DNA from: a virus
Taxonomy: Duplodnaviria; Heunggongvirae; Uroviricota; Caudoviricetes
IMG/VR virus record: IMGVR_UViG_638341087_000002
Strand: one strand, 5' to 3'
Length of the DNA: 26,225 nt
Shown here: piece by piece, positions 5,417 through 26,225 of the stretch
Layout of the letters: each line of letters opens with the position of its first letter
Numbering within the stretch: the first letter of the stretch is position 1
Notes under the pieces: model-generated
The model's database searches: none
What the model was told of the DNA's origin: nothing
Seen by the model: only the letters and a program-made list of their open reading frames with translations
Translations under genes and position numbers: made by a program

Positions 5417-6057
5417 TTTTCGGAATACCTCTCCCGTTTACTCAGTTGTTCAGGCAGATGGTGAAGCAGTTCACCGTTGCCGCAGTAAATGGCAGCATGG
5501 TTGGGTACCGATGCGCCAAAGCAGCACAGCAGGATATCGCCTGCCTGTGCCGAGGACAGGGGCACCCGGTAAAAACCAGTGGCCTCCATATTGTCCAGGT
5601 AAAGGTTCTGACCGTTGCGCCACCAGTCATCCTCACGCTCAAAATCCGGCATATCAATTCCCGCCAGATGGTATGCATCCCGGAACAGCGTGTAACAGTC
5701 CGTCACCCCGTGCTCAAAGCGCCGTCCTGTCAGATGTGGCACACAGCGGAATTTATGAATGTCCCCCCGGCAGACCAGCCACCAGGNCAGTGCNCTTTTT
5801 ATCTGCAGCCGCCGGTCNGCCTCGCTCAGCCAGGGCAGNCCACCGGGATGACTGTGGACCAGTGCCACAATCTCCCCCTGCATCTCTGCCCGCAGCCAGT
5901 CTTCCGGTGCAATACGAAAATACGCCTCCGGCTCTGCAGAGATATTCACACANGGNANATACCGCTCCCCCTCCGGCGTTCTCACCACGAAGCCGCACGA
6001 CTCCGCAGGCACACACCGCCGGGTGTGTGCCAGAATCACTGATTCTGTCTGTGTCAT
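5314..6057 (-). CDS. K: Tail assembly protein K (NlpC/P60 plus JAB/MPN-type domains); contains ambiguous bases
   Basis: 247-aa ORF MTQTESVILAHTRRC...IVALVHSHPG...HGVTDCYTLFRDAYHLAGI... matching lambda K; overlaps the 5' end of I as in lambda. Seven N bases (5787-5958) give X residues. Confidence 0.85.
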   Translation of the reverse strand: MTQTESVILAHTRRCVPAESCGFVVRTPEGERYXXCVNISAEPEAYFRIAPEDWLRAEMQGEIVALVHSHPGXLPWLSEXDRRLQIKXALXWWLVCRGDIHKFRCVPHLTGRRFEHGVTDCYTLFRDAYHLAGIDMPDFEREDDWWRNGQNLYLDNMEATGFYRVPLSSAQAGDILLCCFGASVPNHAAIYCGNGELLHHLPEQLSKRERYSEKWQRRTHSVWRHRHWSASAFTGIYNDLVAASACM

Positions 6058-19308: not shown

Positions 19309-19475
19309 AACTTCCCCTGAAAATTATGTAAATACACGCCAGTGATGAACAAAAAACAATCAACTTCGACACTAAAAAATTTTATTATGATATATATCAA
19401 TGATTTACACTGGTGGTGATGGTGCCATAAAAATCAAAAAATGCGCCTTTTTCCGCGCCGCCCGCCCCGTGTTCA
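19309..19475. other. Candidate cos region (cosB AT-rich segment plus cosN-like GC-rich core)
   Basis: AT-rich 130 bp with A-tracts next to the terS start, then GC-rich CGCGCCGCCCGCCCC (about 19451-19468), which shares the core CGCCGCCC with the lambda cohesive-end sequence GGGCGGCGACCT (complement). Positional analogy to lambda cos-Nu1. Confidence 0.4.
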
Positions 19476-19726
19476 GGCCCACCACACCAGGAGGACCCGA
19501 AAAATGATAATGGTTATCATTTGTAATGTAGTCCGGTTTCTTCCACCATCGCACCGGACCAGCGACTATGAGGGGACAACGCCGCGCTCCGTTAACGCGG
19601 TAAACCCCGGTGTGTATCGTTTTTGATTATCCCCGCACACTCGCGCAGAGGAGTCTCCCTGTCGGGCTGCGGTCTCTGTTAATACGGGAATACGGCGACA
19701 ATACCGCGCATGGATAATAAGGTCGC

Positions 19727-19951
19727 TCAACACACTGGCTGTAATGCAGCGGATACCATGCGGCATTTAGCGGCATTCATCGTACACTCCACGGTTAGCT
19801 CTTCATTCGTGGCATTCACCCGAAAGGTCCGGGAGTGTAATTGCGTACATTTACCACTGAACGAACCTTCAACAAGAACACGACCACGCTGCAAAATACG
19901 GAACGGAATTGTTCCCTGAAAAGGCTTTACGGTTACCAGTAATTTCTTCAT
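19727..19951 (-). CDS. Hypothetical 74-aa protein between Rz and cos
   Basis: ATG at 19949-19951 preceded by GGAG SD; MKKLLVTVKPFQGTIPFRILQRGRVLVEGSFSGKCTQLHSRTFRVNATNEELTVECTMNAAKCRMVSAALQPVC; not recognisable as bor or any family I know. Confidence 0.45.
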   Translation of the reverse strand: MKKLLVTVKPFQGTIPFRILQRGRVLVEGSFSGKCTQLHSRTFRVNATNEELTVECTMNAAKCRMVSAALQPVC

Positions 19952-19974
19952 GCATTCTCCGGATAACAAAAATA

Positions 19975-20442: not shown

Positions 20443-20972
20443 TGATCTATCCCCCAACAAGCTAATGCGCTTTCCTGGTCACGACGAATAACCTGTCCGT
20501 AGCAGTTATTTGAACGTGTGCGGCAATCACGCCCACCGTCCTTAATCCACCAGCGAATCGCCTCACACGCCCCCCTGCGATCGCCTGCATTAATTCGTTT
20601 ATAAAACGTCGACGGGAAACACTTACCTGGGCCAATGTTGTAAGGACAGAATGACGCAATACCCGCTTTCTGGGGTTCAGTCAGTGGCACTTTGATGTTT
20701 TTCTCCACCCATGCCAGCGCCTTATCACGCTCAATGGCGTTAACCTGGTCGCATTTCCCCTTCGACAGCTTCATGCCAGGAATAACAGGCTTACCATCCA
20801 CCCGGGTGGCTCCACGGCAGATGGTCCAGATACCCGCACCATCACGGTATGCCGTGGTGTGGTTGCCTTCCTTTTCATCCAGAAACTGGTCGAGGATTTC
20901 AGGCGCAGAAGCACCTGCGGCAATCAGCGCCAGAACGGCAGCCGATAAACCATAGCGGAGTTTCCTGCTCAT
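20439..20972 (-). CDS. R: SAR endolysin (T4-lysozyme family, glycoside hydrolase family 24) with N-terminal signal-anchor-release domain
   Basis: 177 aa; weakly hydrophobic Gly/Ala-rich N-terminus ([17 protein letters not shown]) followed by an E-x8-D-x5-T catalytic triad ([16 protein letters not shown]), as in the phage 21 and 933W endolysins. Confidence 0.85.
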
Positions 20973-20976
20973 CAGC

Positions 20977-21192
20977 TTACTCTCCCCGTGCCGCCTTACG
21001 CCTGTCCTCTCTGATTTTGAAATACAGGTTCGTCAGGTACGTCAGCAGACCAAACAGCAGACTCCCCAGCACGCCTATTGCCGCCCACTGAGACGGGGAA
21101 ACCCTGTCCAGCAACTGCAGGAACCAGTAGCCCGTTCCCACCGCTGACGTGGTGTATGACACACCTGTTGTGATTTTTTCCATCTGGTACAT
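20977..21192 (-). CDS. S: Class II holin (pinholin, S21-like) with dual start motif
   Basis: 71 aa [71 protein letters not shown]; essentially the S21/933W holin as I remember it; Met1 and Met4 suggest antiholin/holin dual starts; GGGAG SD upstream. Confidence 0.9.
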
Positions 21193-21268: not shown

Positions 21269-21541
21269 TTACAGCATCATGACCGATTCGGGTTGAGGTT
21301 CAGTCGCATCGGCGACCGGTGATTCAGGCTGAACTTCACCGCTCTCTGCGGTGGTATCTCCCGCTTCAGTCGGTGGCTCTGCCTGTACACCAAGCAGCTC
21401 ATCCAGAATGGCATCAACCTCTGCATCAAGACGCGCTTCCAGGTTATGGCGAAGTTTTTGTTTCAGTGCACTCAGGACTTCTTCAGAGCGCAGGACTTCC
21501 TTCACTGCCTCAGCAGTGACCAGGGATGTAATTTCTGACAT
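21269..21541 (-). CDS. Hypothetical acidic 90-aa protein
   Basis: Internal ATG at 21539-21541 of the 148-aa track ORF chosen because the upstream part overlaps another plausible ORF; [51 protein letters not shown]... helical N-terminus, Glu/Pro-rich acidic tail. Weak SD. Confidence 0.45.
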
Positions 21542-21581
21542 GGGATTTTCTCGTCGAAAGGTGTGATTAAGAAAGTTGCCG

Positions 21582-21761
21582 CTAAATGAGCGGCTCTTCG
21601 GGTTTGCTTCCGGCTGACTGACTGGCGCTGATTTTCTCAGCGGCCCTTTTGTCAATCTGTCTGCGCCAGACGTCACGCATGGCCCTGTACCCACCCGAAA
21701 GGAGATACAGCACACAGACCACCGTACAGAAGTACAGCATTAACTGGTTCAGAAATGTCAT
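21582..21761 (-). CDS. Hypothetical 59-aa single-TM membrane protein
   Basis: ATG at 21759-21761 preceded by GGAAAG; MTFLNQLMLYFCTVVCVLYLLSGGYRAMRDVWRRQIDKRAAEKISASQSAGSKPEEPLI (hydrophobic N-terminal segment then basic region). Below the 60-aa cut-off of the supplied track. Confidence 0.4.
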   Translation of the reverse strand: MTFLNQLMLYFCTVVCVLYLLSGGYRAMRDVWRRQIDKRAAEKISASQSAGSKPEEPLI

Positions 21762-21896
21762 AATTTCTTTCCGTTATTGTTGACAATAAGAACTGTTTTC
21801 ATTAAAAAACCAGAGTACGAAAGTATCGTTCCTTTATTTTTTCTCCATAGGTATCACCACCGCCAGCGTCCATTCCTGTCGATGGCGGTTTTTTTA

Positions 21897-23843
21897 TCAT
21901 GCCGCAGTGTCTGTGCTGTTCACTTCCACCGCAATGCTGTCTATCAGTACCGGGTAAGTCGCACCTCTGGTAATGTCTGTCACATGCAGTTTATCCGCCG
22001 CAAAGGCACTGACCGGTGACTGCGTCAGCGTGAACGGTGTGCCATCCTGACCATCAATAACCGGCGTCACCTGCAGGCTGTTATTCCCGGCAAAGCGGAA
22101 AGCCAGCGTATGCCATTCGTTATCAAATGCGCCAAAGGTTCCCAGTTTCAGGTTGTTTGTCGCCACTTTCGCATTGTGGTACATCACATTCAGGTCTTTT
22201 GCATCTGTCTGGATGTAGAACGCTGCCAGCAGGTTATTCCCCCCGTCTCCGGTCAGGGCAACGCCCTGTGGCAGTGAAGATACCGGCCAGTAAAACGCCA
22301 TAACATACTGGTTCGCAGCCAGCNCTCCCGAAACCTTAAAGCGGCAGCGAATCTGCCCCCCTTTCTGTAACAGAGCCGCACCGTTGCCCGCGGCGTACTC
22401 CAGCACCCAGCTGCTTTTACCGGCTTCCTTGGTCAGCTTCACTGCCTTACCTCCGGTTCCCTCCGCATCGCTGACCACTTCTGCCCTGCCGCCACTGGCT
22501 GACCATCCCTGTACTTTCAGGCTTCCCTCTGACTCGCTGGCAAGGTAAGAGAGCAGTGTTGTGACGCCTGTGGCTTCTGCACCGGAAGGCGATGACGGGC
22601 GCACCTCTGATACTGTCGATGATGCCCCCGCGTTTAGCGCCACTCTTCCCGCATGGCGCAAAATCGCCGTTGCCAGACGGTCGGAAATAATCCCGCGGCG
22701 AGCCCATGAACTGAAATGGCTCGCCCTGTCCTGTGACGTCCAGGTGGCTGAGCTGTCACGCCATTTCGAACCGTAATATCCGATACCCGGAATGTCCGGG
22801 TCTTCTTCCGGTTTGTTCGTCGGCACATTCACCCCGTTCTCATCCGTCATGAACGGTACGAAATGGATATTCTTTTCCGTTTTGTTTTTGTAGCTGCCGT
22901 ACACCGTCTGGTACGTGGATTCGTTCTTCTGCTTCCAGAAATACGTCGTATCTCCACATATCCAGGGAACACCGCCAGCAGAGCCNCCGACGCACTGACC
23001 TGCCATATCCGCCAGGTCTGCACGGAATTTATCAACCAGCGCACCAAACTGTGCTGCGTGATTTACCGGCGTACCGCCAAAATCAAATTCCCCCTGCATC
23101 CACNCCACGGCAAACAGCACATTTTTCGGGTTCTTCTTCAGTGCTGCTTTTGTTCGACCGATAAGGTCCTTATACAGCGGCTTGTCCACACCCCAGCGGG
23201 TTGAATTCTCCGAGGCACCACTCGCGTCACTGTATGTGCCATCAGCTCCGGTGGTGAACGCTGAACCACCACGACAGCACGGAACCAGCAGAATGCCCGC
23301 ATTCGCCGGTATAAACGGCAGCAGTTTTTTGGCGATATGCAGCCCCTGCCCCACGGTTCCGTACTGCCCCTTTGACAGGTCCGCTTTCGGATGGTTAAGG
23401 CGGCTCATGTCCTGCACATCATGCAGACAATGGTCCGCCGGAATGATGTCGTTATATTTACAGGCGACACCGCCCGGTGTCACCGTACTGCGACGCGCCA
23501 GCTGCTTAATGCGCAGGTCCGGACGGTCATATGTCTCCGGCAGCGGAAGGCCTTCACCATATGCCATGCTGTTTGACTGCCCCGCCAGAACCACAACAAA
23601 GTAATACTCCGGGTCTCTGGTGGCGCTGATTACTGTGCCTTCTCCATCCGACGGCTTCACCACAACAGGTGTGCTCACATCACCTTCTGCGACAATCGCC
23701 TGAATAAGTGCTGCGCCATCATCCGTATACGAAGAAAACGGCCCGCCGTATGGTTGCCATCCTTCACGAATTTTTTGAGCAAGTGCATCAGCAAGGTCTG
23801 ACGGCGACACCGCCCTGACCACATCATAATGTTTAATCGACAT
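21897..23843 (-). CDS. nanS-p: Prophage sialate O-acetylesterase NanS-p-like (SGNH/SASA hydrolase core with N- and C-terminal accessory domains); contains ambiguous bases
   Basis: 648-aa ORF; GQSN-type motif (VLAGQSNSMAYGEG) characteristic of sialate O-acetylesterases; size and location (between the tRNA/toxin locus and the holin) match the yjhS/nanS homologue of Stx phages. Three N bases (22325, 22986, 23104). Confidence 0.8.
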   Translation of the reverse strand: MSIKHYDVVRAVSPSDLADALAQKIREGWQPYGGPFSSYTDDGAALIQAIVAEGDVSTPVVVKPSDGEGTVISATRDPEYYFVVVLAGQSNSMAYGEGLPLPETYDRPDLRIKQLARRSTVTPGGVACKYNDIIPADHCLHDVQDMSRLNHPKADLSKGQYGTVGQGLHIAKKLLPFIPANAGILLVPCCRGGSAFTTGADGTYSDASGASENSTRWGVDKPLYKDLIGRTKAALKKNPKNVLFAVXWMQGEFDFGGTPVNHAAQFGALVDKFRADLADMAGQCVXGSAGGVPWICGDTTYFWKQKNESTYQTVYGSYKNKTEKNIHFVPFMTDENGVNVPTNKPEEDPDIPGIGYYGSKWRDSSATWTSQDRASHFSSWARRGIISDRLATAILRHAGRVALNAGASSTVSEVRPSSPSGAEATGVTTLLSYLASESEGSLKVQGWSASGGRAEVVSDAEGTGGKAVKLTKEAGKSSWVLEYAAGNGAALLQKGGQIRCRFKVSGXLAANQYVMAFYWPVSSLPQGVALTGDGGNNLLAAFYIQTDAKDLNVMYHNAKVATNNLKLGTFGAFDNEWHTLAFRFAGNNSLQVTPVIDGQDGTPFTLTQSPVSAFAADKLHVTDITRGATYPVLIDSIAVEVNSTDTAA

Positions 23844-23948: not shown

Positions 23949-24157
23949 GCGCAGCCGAAAATAAAGGGATAACGATGATAGTTTGAGAAAAACAGAAATA
24001 ACACTTTTGTGGCAAAGCATGGTGCCGGGTGCCTCCCGGTGAATTCAGTATCAGCACCTGAATCCGCGATTACCCCATATTCCTTCTTGCTGATTGCCCC
24101 ACCGCACAGGGGGATTCACCATGCAGAAGTGTTTTTAATAAACAGCAAACAAAAAAA

Positions 24158-24325
24158 TCAAGCATTATGCAGGCTGTTTCTTTTTATCACCGGCCACAGC
24201 AATACCATAATGCCGCAGACCAGCACCCCATCCGCCAGCACCGACATGATTCTGCTGGTGAAATCCACCATCACCACCAGAAACAGCAGGAGTGCAGCCA
24301 CAGCCAGGCGCAGTTTTACCGTCAC
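24158..24325 (-). CDS. Hypothetical 55-aa two-TM small membrane protein, start codon overlapping the TerB-like stop
   Basis: GTG at 24323-24325 overlaps the TerB-like stop (GTGA) with GGAG 8 nt upstream; VTVKLRLAVAALLLFLVVMVDFTSRIMSVLADGVLVCGIMVLLWPVIKRNSLHNA has two hydrophobic segments. Not in the supplied track in this frame. Confidence 0.3.
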   Translation of the reverse strand: MTVKLRLAVAALLLFLVVMVDFTSRIMSVLADGVLVCGIMVLLWPVIKRNSLHNA

Positions 24326-24753
24326 AGGTGATTCTCCAGACGAAGACCCAGAACACCGGCAATCTCTTCCAGCACCTTGCGCTCTTCCGGCTCAATTTCG
24401 CCGTCTGCCTCCGCAATGGCCACCGCCACATCCAGCACATCTTCCGCTTCACGCGTATCGTGTTTCACATCCTCAATCTCGCGTAACGCGGCACGACGAC
24501 CAATTTTAAAATTGGTATCCAGCTGACCGATAATAGTTGCGCTAATCGCATTAATTTCCGAGGTAAACGCAGACAACGCAGGCTGATTACGTAAGACCTG
24601 TTCGATCTTCGCTTTCTCGGATGCCTCGCATTCACCATCTGCATAGGCCACCAGGTATGCAGCGTTAATCACCGCCTGTGCCAGATCGCGTTTCTCAAAC
24701 TTTTTAATTTCCGCTGCCGCTCTGCGGGTTTTCTTTTTGAAGATTCCAAACAT
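24322..24753 (-). CDS. TerB-like domain protein (tellurite-resistance TerB family fold), 143 aa
   Basis: ATG at 24751-24753 with AGGAA SD (track ORF starts at an upstream GTG). Two repeats of the TerB-type motif: AYADGECEASEKAKIEQVL and AEADGEIEPEERKVLEEIAGVLGL. Confidence 0.55.
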   Translation of the reverse strand: MFGIFKKKTRRAAAEIKKFEKRDLAQAVINAAYLVAYADGECEASEKAKIEQVLRNQPALSAFTSEINAISATIIGQLDTNFKIGRRAALREIEDVKHDTREAEDVLDVAVAIAEADGEIEPEERKVLEEIAGVLGLRLENHL

Positions 24754-24884
24754 CGTGACGTTCCTTTGGGTGGGTGAGCCAACGCCCGGGAGCGATCTGC
24801 CCACAGAGAAAGTCACACTGACCACTCCGTAAGCTCACCCCCGAAAGGCTCTGTGGTTGATATGCGCCGGGCGTGGCGCAGATA

Positions 24885-24909
24885 CAAAAAAGGCCCGCCG
24901 AAGCGAGCC
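24885..24909 (-). terminator. Intrinsic terminator downstream of the tRNA cluster
   Basis: Minus strand GGCUCGC-UUCG-GCGGGCC (UUCG tetraloop, one G-U pair) followed by UUUUUUG, about 14 nt after the last tRNA. Confidence 0.6.
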
Positions 24910-24922
24910 TGGAAAATAAGTG

Positions 24923-24999
24923 TGGCGCGTTGTAGTGGAGTCGAACCACTGACCGATTGCTTAGAAGGCAATTGCTCTGTCCGACTGAGCTAACAACGC
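24923..24999 (-). tRNA. argN: tRNA-Arg (anticodon UCU, reads AGA/AGG)
   Basis: Hand-folded cloverleaf: acceptor GCGTTGT/ACAACGC, D-arm GCTC..GAGC, anticodon stem ATTGC/GCAAT with loop CTTCTAA, T-arm AGTGG-TTCGACT-CCACT, discriminator G, encoded CCA. Confidence 0.8.
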
Positions 25000-25012
25000 A
25001 TGATGCTGATAA

Positions 25013-25089
25013 TGGACCGCCATCGGGGACTTGAACCCCGCGCAGCCAGCTTCGAAGGCTGGCGCTCTGTCCCGATGAGCTAATGGCGG
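25013..25089 (-). tRNA. argO: tRNA-Arg (anticodon UCG, reads CGA/CGG); atypical C1:G72 and U73
   Basis: Hand-folded cloverleaf: acceptor CCGCCAT/ATGGCGG, D-arm GCTC..GAGC, anticodon stem CCAGC/GCTGG with loop CTTCGAA, T-arm CGGGG-TTCAAGT-CCCCG, encoded CCA. Gene symbol assigned by position only. Confidence 0.65.
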
Positions 25090-25098
25090 TATGTGATA

Positions 25099-25174
25099 TG
25101 GTGGCCCTTGCTGGATTTGAACCAGCGACCTGGCGATTATGAGTCGCTCGCTCTCACCACTGAGCTAAAGGGCC
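25099..25174 (-). tRNA. ileZ: tRNA-Ile2 (anticodon CAU, lysidine-type, reads AUA)
   Basis: 76 nt GGCCCTTTAGCTCAGTGGTGAGAGCGAGCGACTCATAATCGCCAGGTCGCTGGTTCAAATCCAGCAAGGGCCACCA; near-identical to E. coli ileX/ileY as remembered; anticodon loop CTCATAA. Confidence 0.85.
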
Positions 25175-25202
25175 GAGCCAAAAAATAATAATCAGATGAA
25201 AA

Positions 25203-25916
25203 TCAATAATCAAGCCCTTGCCTGGATACATATCTGTCTGGCGGGAAGCCATAATAGCGGTGAAATACAGAAATAAAGTAGGACCTGCTTGAATAACCGC
25301 ATTTTTCTGCTATAGCCTGTCCATATCCATGCCGGGAACATAACATATTTACAGCAACACGCATCCGCTCTTCCAGCAACAAGCGACTGAACATGCCCCC
25401 TTCATTTTTCAGTTTTGTCTTTAACAAACTCTCACTCATATGCAACTGTAGAGCAATCGCACCAAGCGTCCAGCTTGCTGATATATCTGTCTGAATTATC
25501 GCCCTGACTTTGGCACTTATGCTGGATAAACATCCACTTAAAAACAATGACATCCGTTCATCTGTTTCAAACAGAGACAGGCAGGCCATCATAAGAAACA
25601 TATCCGTGGCCTCTCCGGAAAATCCCTGGCTGGTAATTAAAGCCGCAGCCAACGCAGGATTGTTGGGTTCCAGCAACAGGTAAAGCGGAATGTCAGTCAG
25701 ACGAGTCCTCGTCAGCTTATGCTGACTTTCCAGATATTGACTTACGACGGATTCGCTTATATCGACAATTTTAACTTTGCCATAATGCATAAGGAAAAGC
25801 TCCCTGATGCATTTGGTGGCCAGAACGACTGAGCCTGGCTTAAGTGACAACGTATCCTTTTCAAGAAAAATATTAATTGGGGAGCAAACCATGATAACTG
25901 AACAGACAACAGCCAT
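25203..25916 (-). CDS. AraC/XylS-family transcriptional regulator (prophage cargo gene)
   Basis: 237-aa ORF with C-terminal AraC-type double HTH (WTLGAIALQLHMSESLLKTKLKNEGGMFSRLL.EERMRVAVNMLCSRHGYGQAIAEKCGYSSRSYFISVFHRYYGFPPDRY). Start uncertain (Met1 at 25916 or Met9 at 25892; neither has a strong SD). Confidence 0.8.
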   Translation of the reverse strand: MAVVCSVIMVCSPINIFLEKDTLSLKPGSVVLATKCIRELFLMHYGKVKIVDISESVVSQYLESQHKLTRTRLTDIPLYLLLEPNNPALAAALITSQGFSGEATDMFLMMACLSLFETDERMSLFLSGCLSSISAKVRAIIQTDISASWTLGAIALQLHMSESLLKTKLKNEGGMFSRLLLEERMRVAVNMLCSRHGYGQAIAEKCGYSSRSYFISVFHRYYGFPPDRYVSRQGLDY

Positions 25917-25945
25917 TATAATTTTACTTTCATTAGCAATTGGTT

Positions 25946-25990
25946 AGCTCAATTATAGCCCCAAAAGGTAAATTATCATCAACACATAAG
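25946..25990 (-). promoter_or_regulatory. Candidate sigma70 promoter upstream of the AraC-like gene (possible late-promoter equivalent)
   Basis: Perfect -10 TATAAT on the minus strand (plus 25952-25957) 36 nt upstream of the AraC-like ATG; weak -35 candidates (TTGATG/TGATGA) 17-19 nt upstream. Confidence 0.35.
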
Positions 25991-26035
25991 CAAAGGACTG
26001 ACAGGTGTCGCCCCCCCCACCAGCCGCCCATTCAC

Positions 26036-26065
26036 CACAAATAAAAAGCCTTCAGGACTGAAGGC
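26036..26065 (-). terminator. Hairpin plus U-tract overlapping the stop codon of the Q-like ORF
   Basis: Minus strand GCCUUCAG-UC-CUGAAGGC (stop codon inside) followed by UUUUUAUUU. Confidence 0.45.
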
Positions 26066-26225
26066 GTCTGTAACAACCGCACTGATAGTCTGCCAGACCC
26101 GCCATAACAAGCTGGGTCAGTATTAACTGGCAGCGTTCGCGTGAAAGGTAAGTATTCTGCGCAACCTCCCCGACTGTCGCCGGTTCGGTAACGCTTAATT
26201 CATTAAACACCACTCTGGCGGTTTC
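26052..26225 (-). CDS. Probable late-gene antiterminator Q, C-terminal 57 codons (5' part outside the window)
   Basis: Open frame to the window edge ending ...SVTEPATVGEVAQNTYLSRERCQLILTQLVMAGLADYQCGCYRRLQS; assignment rests mainly on position (upstream of the tRNA cluster and lysis genes) and Cys-rich C-terminus; I do not recognise the sequence confidently. Confidence 0.35.
   Translation of the reverse strand, partial: ETARVVFNELSVTEPATVGEVAQNTYLSRERCQLILTQLVMAGLADYQCGCYRRLQS

Follow-up and report, generated by a model that had tools for sequence, protein, structure and literature searches.

The open reading frame (ORF) at positions 25203-25916 on the minus strand of the tailed-phage DNA in IMG/VR record IMGVR_UViG_638341087_000002 (26,225 nucleotides, hereafter the window) runs from ATG to stop and encodes an AraC/XylS-family regulator of 237 amino acids. 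Very probably, this gene is the psrB allele common in enterohaemorrhagic Escherichia coli (EHEC) other than O157, a moron gene placed between a Q-like antiterminator module and the tRNA genes ileZ-argN-argO, whose product acts on the same host targets as PsrB of O157. Thus, the prophage carries a known lysogenic-conversion regulator that ties the phage to the acid-fitness island of its host and, indirectly, to the type III secretion of the enterocyte effacement locus (LEE). The gene and its role as a host regulator are already known, and the finding opens no new biology; the present analysis adds an annotation of the allele found outside O157 and assigns a fold to its N-terminal domain. The value of the annotation lies in the fact that this allele, 100% identical in DNA, is the one found in O26:H11 and O145:H28 genomes and in other Shiga toxin-producing E. 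coli (identity in O157:H7 is 99.3%), whereas functional work has dealt with the O157 allele. RefSeq labels the gene product only as a "helix-turn-helix domain-containing protein", and PHROGs labels its family as "unknown function".

Identity of the Gene and Its O157 Paralogues

The window protein (WP_000301785.1, an exact match present on at least 1000 public contigs) is 100% identical to ECO26_RS06315 of the O26:H11 strain 11368. The comparison with the described AraC-like regulators of O157 prophages clearly showed a match to PsrB: the protein shares 234 of 237 residues (98.7%) with the full-length ORF of ECs_2191 in the Sakai prophage Sp11 and with the EDL933 copy, both having the same length of 237 residues from a homologous start. 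The three differences relative to O157 PsrB are A103V, H196Y and I202V. A preliminary description of this DNA had proposed a candidate lysogenic-conversion regulator of the kind encoded by EHEC prophages, and the gene turned out to be an allele of PsrB itself.

The EDL933 copy is identical to that of Sakai Sp11, where ECs_2191 is flanked by a DUF1133 "antiterminator" and ileZ/argO, and where pchB, nleG2-3, nleG6-2 and nleG5-2 are also present. The psr prophage of EDL933 ends at ydfJ and bears three NleG-family genes with lengths equal to those of nleG2-3, nleG6-2 and nleG5-2. According to the literature, O-island (OI) 57, which also carries z2104, i.e., psrB, has its end defined by the nleG genes z2149-z2151 (PMC8565820; PMC10877973). 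The ydfJ end and the matching lengths of the NleG-family genes therefore allow us to conclude that the psr prophage of EDL933 is OI-57.

Sakai bears two psr paralogues, ECs_2191 in Sp11 and ECs_1087 in Sp4. The latter is 90.7% identical to the window protein and likewise 90.7% identical to ECs_2191, and the published identity between PsrA and PsrB is 90% (PMC10877973), so that ECs_1087 is presumably the published PsrA. It differs from the window protein by 22 substitutions, 17 of them within the N-terminal 125 residues. Near-identity to the OI-57/Sp11 copy together with 90.7% identity to the Sp4 copy thus indicates that the gene under study is a psrB allele. ECs_1087 has the same length, the same site directly upstream of ileZ-argN-argO and the same promoter region, but another Q type (of the antiterminator Q family) lies upstream of it, together with the gene for a CPBP protease. 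The reviews place psrA at z1789/OI-50. When we looked for a homologue at OI-50/CP-933N, Sakai Sp6 lacked one, the EDL933 region guessed to correspond was unrelated chromosome, and the second O157 copy was the one in Sp4; on the sequences compared here, the z1789/OI-50 placement of psrA appears not to be reconciled with the data.

In Sakai, a start giving 195 residues is annotated. We rejected it in favor of the 237-residue start because M1, C5, S6 and V7 are invariant across seven aligned proteins, which include YdeO, GadW, AppY and ECs_0287, the AraC-type gene product of Sp1/CP-933H and presumably PatE. The GC content of the psrB allele (44% vs. 55% for the window) is as expected of a moron gene that is compositionally foreign. 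An Rfam scan revealed no known RNA within the allele or immediately upstream.

Position Between the Antiterminator Module and the tRNA Genes

The tRNA genes ileZ-argN-argO begin 28 bp downstream of the psrB allele on the same strand: ileZ with a CAU anticodon (25099-25174, minus strand; called Met by ARAGORN and tRNA-Ile by RefSeq and the 933W record), argN for tRNA-Arg (UCG) (25013-25089, minus strand) and argO for tRNA-Arg (UCU) (24923-24999, minus strand). On the other side lies the 3' part of a 65-codon ORF (26052-26225, minus strand; PHROG 331, unknown function, with a weak TrmB-like winged helix), within which the window stops at 26225. Hence, the gene's location between Q and the tRNA genes, as previously described, holds within the window for the immediately downstream tRNA genes, while Q is absent from it. 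The missing side is supplied by the O26:H11 11368 locus, which differs from window positions 24800-26225 by a single base: there, the next gene upstream encodes a DUF1133 protein, a Q-like antiterminator located 574 bp upstream, with matches to PHROG 753 "anti-termination protein Q-like" (E 3.5e-74) and to Pfam Phage_antitermQ (35.2 bits, cut-off 26). The Q-to-tRNA placement is thus borne out in this locus, although the Q type is other than that of 933W, the phage to which the preliminary description had compared the window.

The O157 PsrB locus has the same gene order, i.e., the Q-like DUF1133 gene, the 65-codon ORF, psr, ileZ and the arg tRNA genes, TerB, DUF3927 and the SASA esterase gene, with a nearly identical region containing the upstream promoter and terminator; argN has been lost in the Sp11 copy. 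The window prophage differs from the O157 one in its morphogenesis genes (of the ClpP-capsid fusion type) and in lacking pch between the lysis and terminase genes. Taken as a whole, the window is the arm of a lambdoid prophage that carries the late and morphogenesis genes, and the psr gene occupies the late-region slot downstream of the antiterminator. The same slot is occupied in seven further loci bearing either close homologues or homologues of 59-63% identity.

Among 50,697 phage records, the sole close match was found in the Stx2k-converting phage phiSTEC1575-Stx2k (OQ243220; locus L002, 6001-8324), where a psr homologue of 91.6% identity lies directly upstream of ileZ-argN-argO and stx2k. 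The psr-like genes of 59-63% identity (L014, 4001-4726; L016, 4001-4723) reside in the same Q-to-lysis slot and have an N6/N4 DNA methyltransferase gene upstream, and the 65-codon ORF accompanies the Q module in these two loci too. In complete E. coli genomes, psr homologues were found in 726 out of 5426, with one to four copies in each.

Domain Architecture and Fold

The protein comprises an N-terminal cupin-like domain of the regulatory/dimerization type (residues 1 to about 125; 25542-25916, minus strand) and a C-terminal DNA-binding domain that spans about 100 residues and contains two helix-turn-helix motifs (residues about 131-233; 25218-25526, minus strand), an architecture characteristic of the AraC/XylS family. 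The earlier assignment of the ORF to this family was confirmed by Pfam matches above the cut-offs over residues about 134-232 (HTH_AraC, 50.3 bits, cut-off 26.6; HTH_18, 39.8 bits, cut-off 33.6). The AlphaFold2 model built from 50 homologues was confident, with a predicted local distance difference test score (pLDDT) of 91.9, and superposed on the DNA-binding domain of GadX (3mkl) at 1.2-1.8 Å.

The preliminary description had found the N-terminal domain unrecognizable, and this has to be abandoned. In BLASTP, the full-length protein matched ECs_0287 (37% identity, E 5e-53), GadW (35%), YdeO (31%) and AppY (29%), and its N-terminal 125 residues alone still matched all four (E 2.5e-15 to 1.9e-6). 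In the model, this domain appears as a compact version of the cupin-like AraC regulatory/dimerization domain, with a predicted fold closest to those of ExsA, Rns, CsvR and ToxT. Foldseek matched the full-length model to Rns, CsvR and ToxT (E 4e-11 to 6e-8); the Rns/ToxT-type match (E 4e-11) has a template modelling (TM) score of 0.43 owing to differing domain orientation, and reflects overall fold similarity only. With respect to the virulence regulators Rns, CsvR and ToxT, which have fatty-acid-binding N-terminal domains, and to ExsA, the PsrB allele is therefore a fold relative only. To our knowledge, no ligand is known for the N-domain subgroup to which PsrB belongs.

The K-12 regulators YdeO, GadW and AppY share the two-domain architecture, align with the window protein from residue 1 (M--VCSV motif) and all act on gadE. 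The presumed PatE is similar over its full length, including the N-terminal domain, and PatE is a prophage-borne activator of gadE and hdeAB that acts on the hdeA promoter segment also targeted by PsrB; its gene differs in lying at the end of a degraded prophage, outside the Q-tRNA slot. The window protein is orthologous to none of these four. In particular, the NCBIfam YdeO model (NF007407) aligns over its full length (1-229 vs. 1-230 of 253) but scores 108.5 bits against an equivalog cut-off of 348, and, given only 31% identity to K-12 YdeO, we rejected orthology and regard the two as homologues only. The score of the NCBIfam GadX model is likewise below its cut-off (87 vs. 500).

Upstream Region

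A promoter-like element on the minus strand (25952-25979) consists of ATGATA (25979-25974), a 16-nt spacer and TATAAT (25957-25952), the latter ending 35 nt upstream of the psrB ATG. The TATAAT reported before at 25952-25957 was thus recovered as the reverse complement of the given strand, and with 10 of 12 consensus positions the element is the best sigma-70-like match in 24300-26225. Promoter-like matches in this region are frequent (5 vs. 2.2 ± 1.4 in shuffled sequences), so that a consensus match alone proves little. The 300 bp upstream of psr are almost invariant among five paralogous loci, where the -10 hexamer does not vary at all and the -35 region hardly does.

Scanning the window and the O26:H11 locus revealed a hairpin resembling an intrinsic terminator (26038-26065, minus strand), GCCTTCA-GTCC-TGAAGGC followed by TTTTTATTTG. 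The hairpin and its T-run (26065-26038) overlap the stop codon of the 65-codon ORF and precede the promoter-like element. Of the five loci aligned, four retain the outer six pairs of the stem; the Stx2k phage has another loop, and Sakai Sp11 has one mismatch in the stem.

Proposed Function and Mechanism

The function of PsrB is taken here from two reviews (PMC10877973; PMC10057817) and is known for O157 PsrA and PsrB only (PMC10877973; PMC8565820). The AT-rich sites bound by O157 PsrB lie in the promoters of hdeA (-132 to -45) and gadE, and the protein activates the acid-fitness genes of the AR2/GAD system (acid resistance system 2, glutamate decarboxylase) and the hdeAB chaperone genes (PMC10877973; PMC10057817). 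Cells in which PsrB is induced survive better at pH 2.5-3.5 and in the stomach of mice (PMC10877973). Along with PsrA, it represses LEE type III secretion indirectly via GadE and YhiF, whose genes are activated (PMC10877973; PMC8565820; PMC10057817). We infer that the window allele would have the same targets, since helices 162-171 and 211-222 of the model, located at the recognition-helix positions of the AraC family, are identical between this allele and O157 PsrB.

In a lysogen, psrB would be transcribed from its own predicted promoter downstream of the intrinsic terminator. Upon prophage induction, Q-modified RNA polymerase would be expected to read through psrB along with the tRNA and lysis genes, as suggested by the gene's position. 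By analogy with other AraC-family proteins, the N-terminal cupin-like domain may serve dimerization or regulation.

Several points weigh against this reading. In O157, the single deletion of psrB barely affects secretion, and its contribution in vivo may be small or redundant (PMC10877973). All the functional work concerns the O157 allele, from which the window allele departs by three substitutions, and, with 94% DNA identity between the paralogues, RNA-sequencing reads may map to more than one of them. The psrB promoter is predicted from a consensus match in which the -35 hexamer is poor, and there is no obvious Shine-Dalgarno sequence. Furthermore, the window lacks both pch and effector genes, which the literature associates with psr. 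The interval from Rz to the gene for the terminase small subunit (window positions 19309-19974), a 666-bp gap with ORFs of at most 80 codons, contained no PerC/pch-like ORF; a pch gene is present in the psr prophages of O26 11368, Sakai (Sp11 and Sp4) and EDL933. Any effector loci would fall beyond the window end.

PsrB might also respond to signals, as a switch that has two inputs, and not be a constitutively expressed moron gene, a proposal we consider rather unlikely. A gut-derived ligand bound in the N-terminal domain, predicted to fold like those of Rns, CsvR and ToxT, might modulate both GAD activation and LEE repression, and Q-dependent read-through might couple SOS and prophage induction to the control of acid resistance and secretion; in the Stx2k phage, psr would then lie on the same transcript as stx2k. 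We found no description of either input, ligand or induction, in the literature consulted.

The same small effect of the single deletion in O157, along with the AT-rich region and the weak translation signals, might suggest that the psrB allele is an intact yet silent or redundant passenger, silenced by H-NS and poorly translated, conferring no phenotype on this host. We hold this to be improbable: the ORF is intact in 726 genomes, the ratio of nonsynonymous to synonymous substitution rates (dN/dS) versus the paralogues is 0.2-0.45, i.e., below 1, with the majority of replacements in the N-terminal domain, the -10 hexamer is perfectly conserved, and PsrB, when induced, did enhance both resistance to acid and survival in the stomach of mice (PMC10877973). 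Least credible of all is a phage-internal regulator acting on the adjacent tRNA genes or on the late/lysis operon instead of host genes, since PsrA/B, PatE, AppY, YdeO and GadW, the characterized members of the family, target gad/hde promoters of the host, the relatives of 59-63% identity no longer have the gene next to the tRNA genes (which are located upstream of it in L014 and missing from L016), and in 933W the same tRNA and late genes operate with no psr-type regulator.

Comparison with 933W and Other Features of the Window

In 933W, the tRNA genes do follow Q closely, as had been stated: Q ends at 20678, 441 bp ahead of ileZ, whose start is at 21120. Homology to the window covers the tRNA block from 4 nt before ileZ (94.7%) and is lost past the tRNA terminator; it starts again a short way upstream of the SASA/NanS-p esterase gene and continues through the lysozyme gene (93.7%). 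The psr module stands where 933W has its Q-pR'-pT segment. A promoter-like TTGATT-17-TATTAT lies over the psr stop codon (25185-25213, minus strand; 9 of 12, a consensus match only); it is positioned like pT, the putative tRNA promoter annotated in 933W, yet is not homologous to it. After argO, there is a terminator-like hairpin with a T-run (24881-24910, minus strand; 8 pairs, 6 of them G-C), and 933W has an annotated terminator at the same place.

Downstream of this terminator lie the genes for a TerB-family protein of 143 residues (24322-24753, minus strand; Pfam TerB, 60.2 bits; PHROG 632) and for a DUF3927 protein (24158-24325, minus strand; Pfam, 60 bits). Together (24158-24753, minus strand), they occupy exactly the slot of stx2AB in 933W (933W positions 21462-22702).

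Megablast, queried with the window's first 25 kb, returned no complete genome exceeding about 97% identity over 94% of the query, and the 100% matches were limited to the psr-tRNA end. With no close match to the window as a whole, we conclude that it represents a mosaic prophage lacking an exact representative in the genome collection. The window contains ten ambiguous bases (N), some within the tail-gene region (5787-5958) and others, at 22324, 22986 and 23104, giving X residues in the translation of the esterase; its sequence probably stems from a draft assembly. Positions 23981-24153 of the minus strand, flanked by the DUF3927 ORF and the SASA/NanS-p esterase gene, match the small RNA STnc100 (Rfam, 100.8 bits, gathering score 47).
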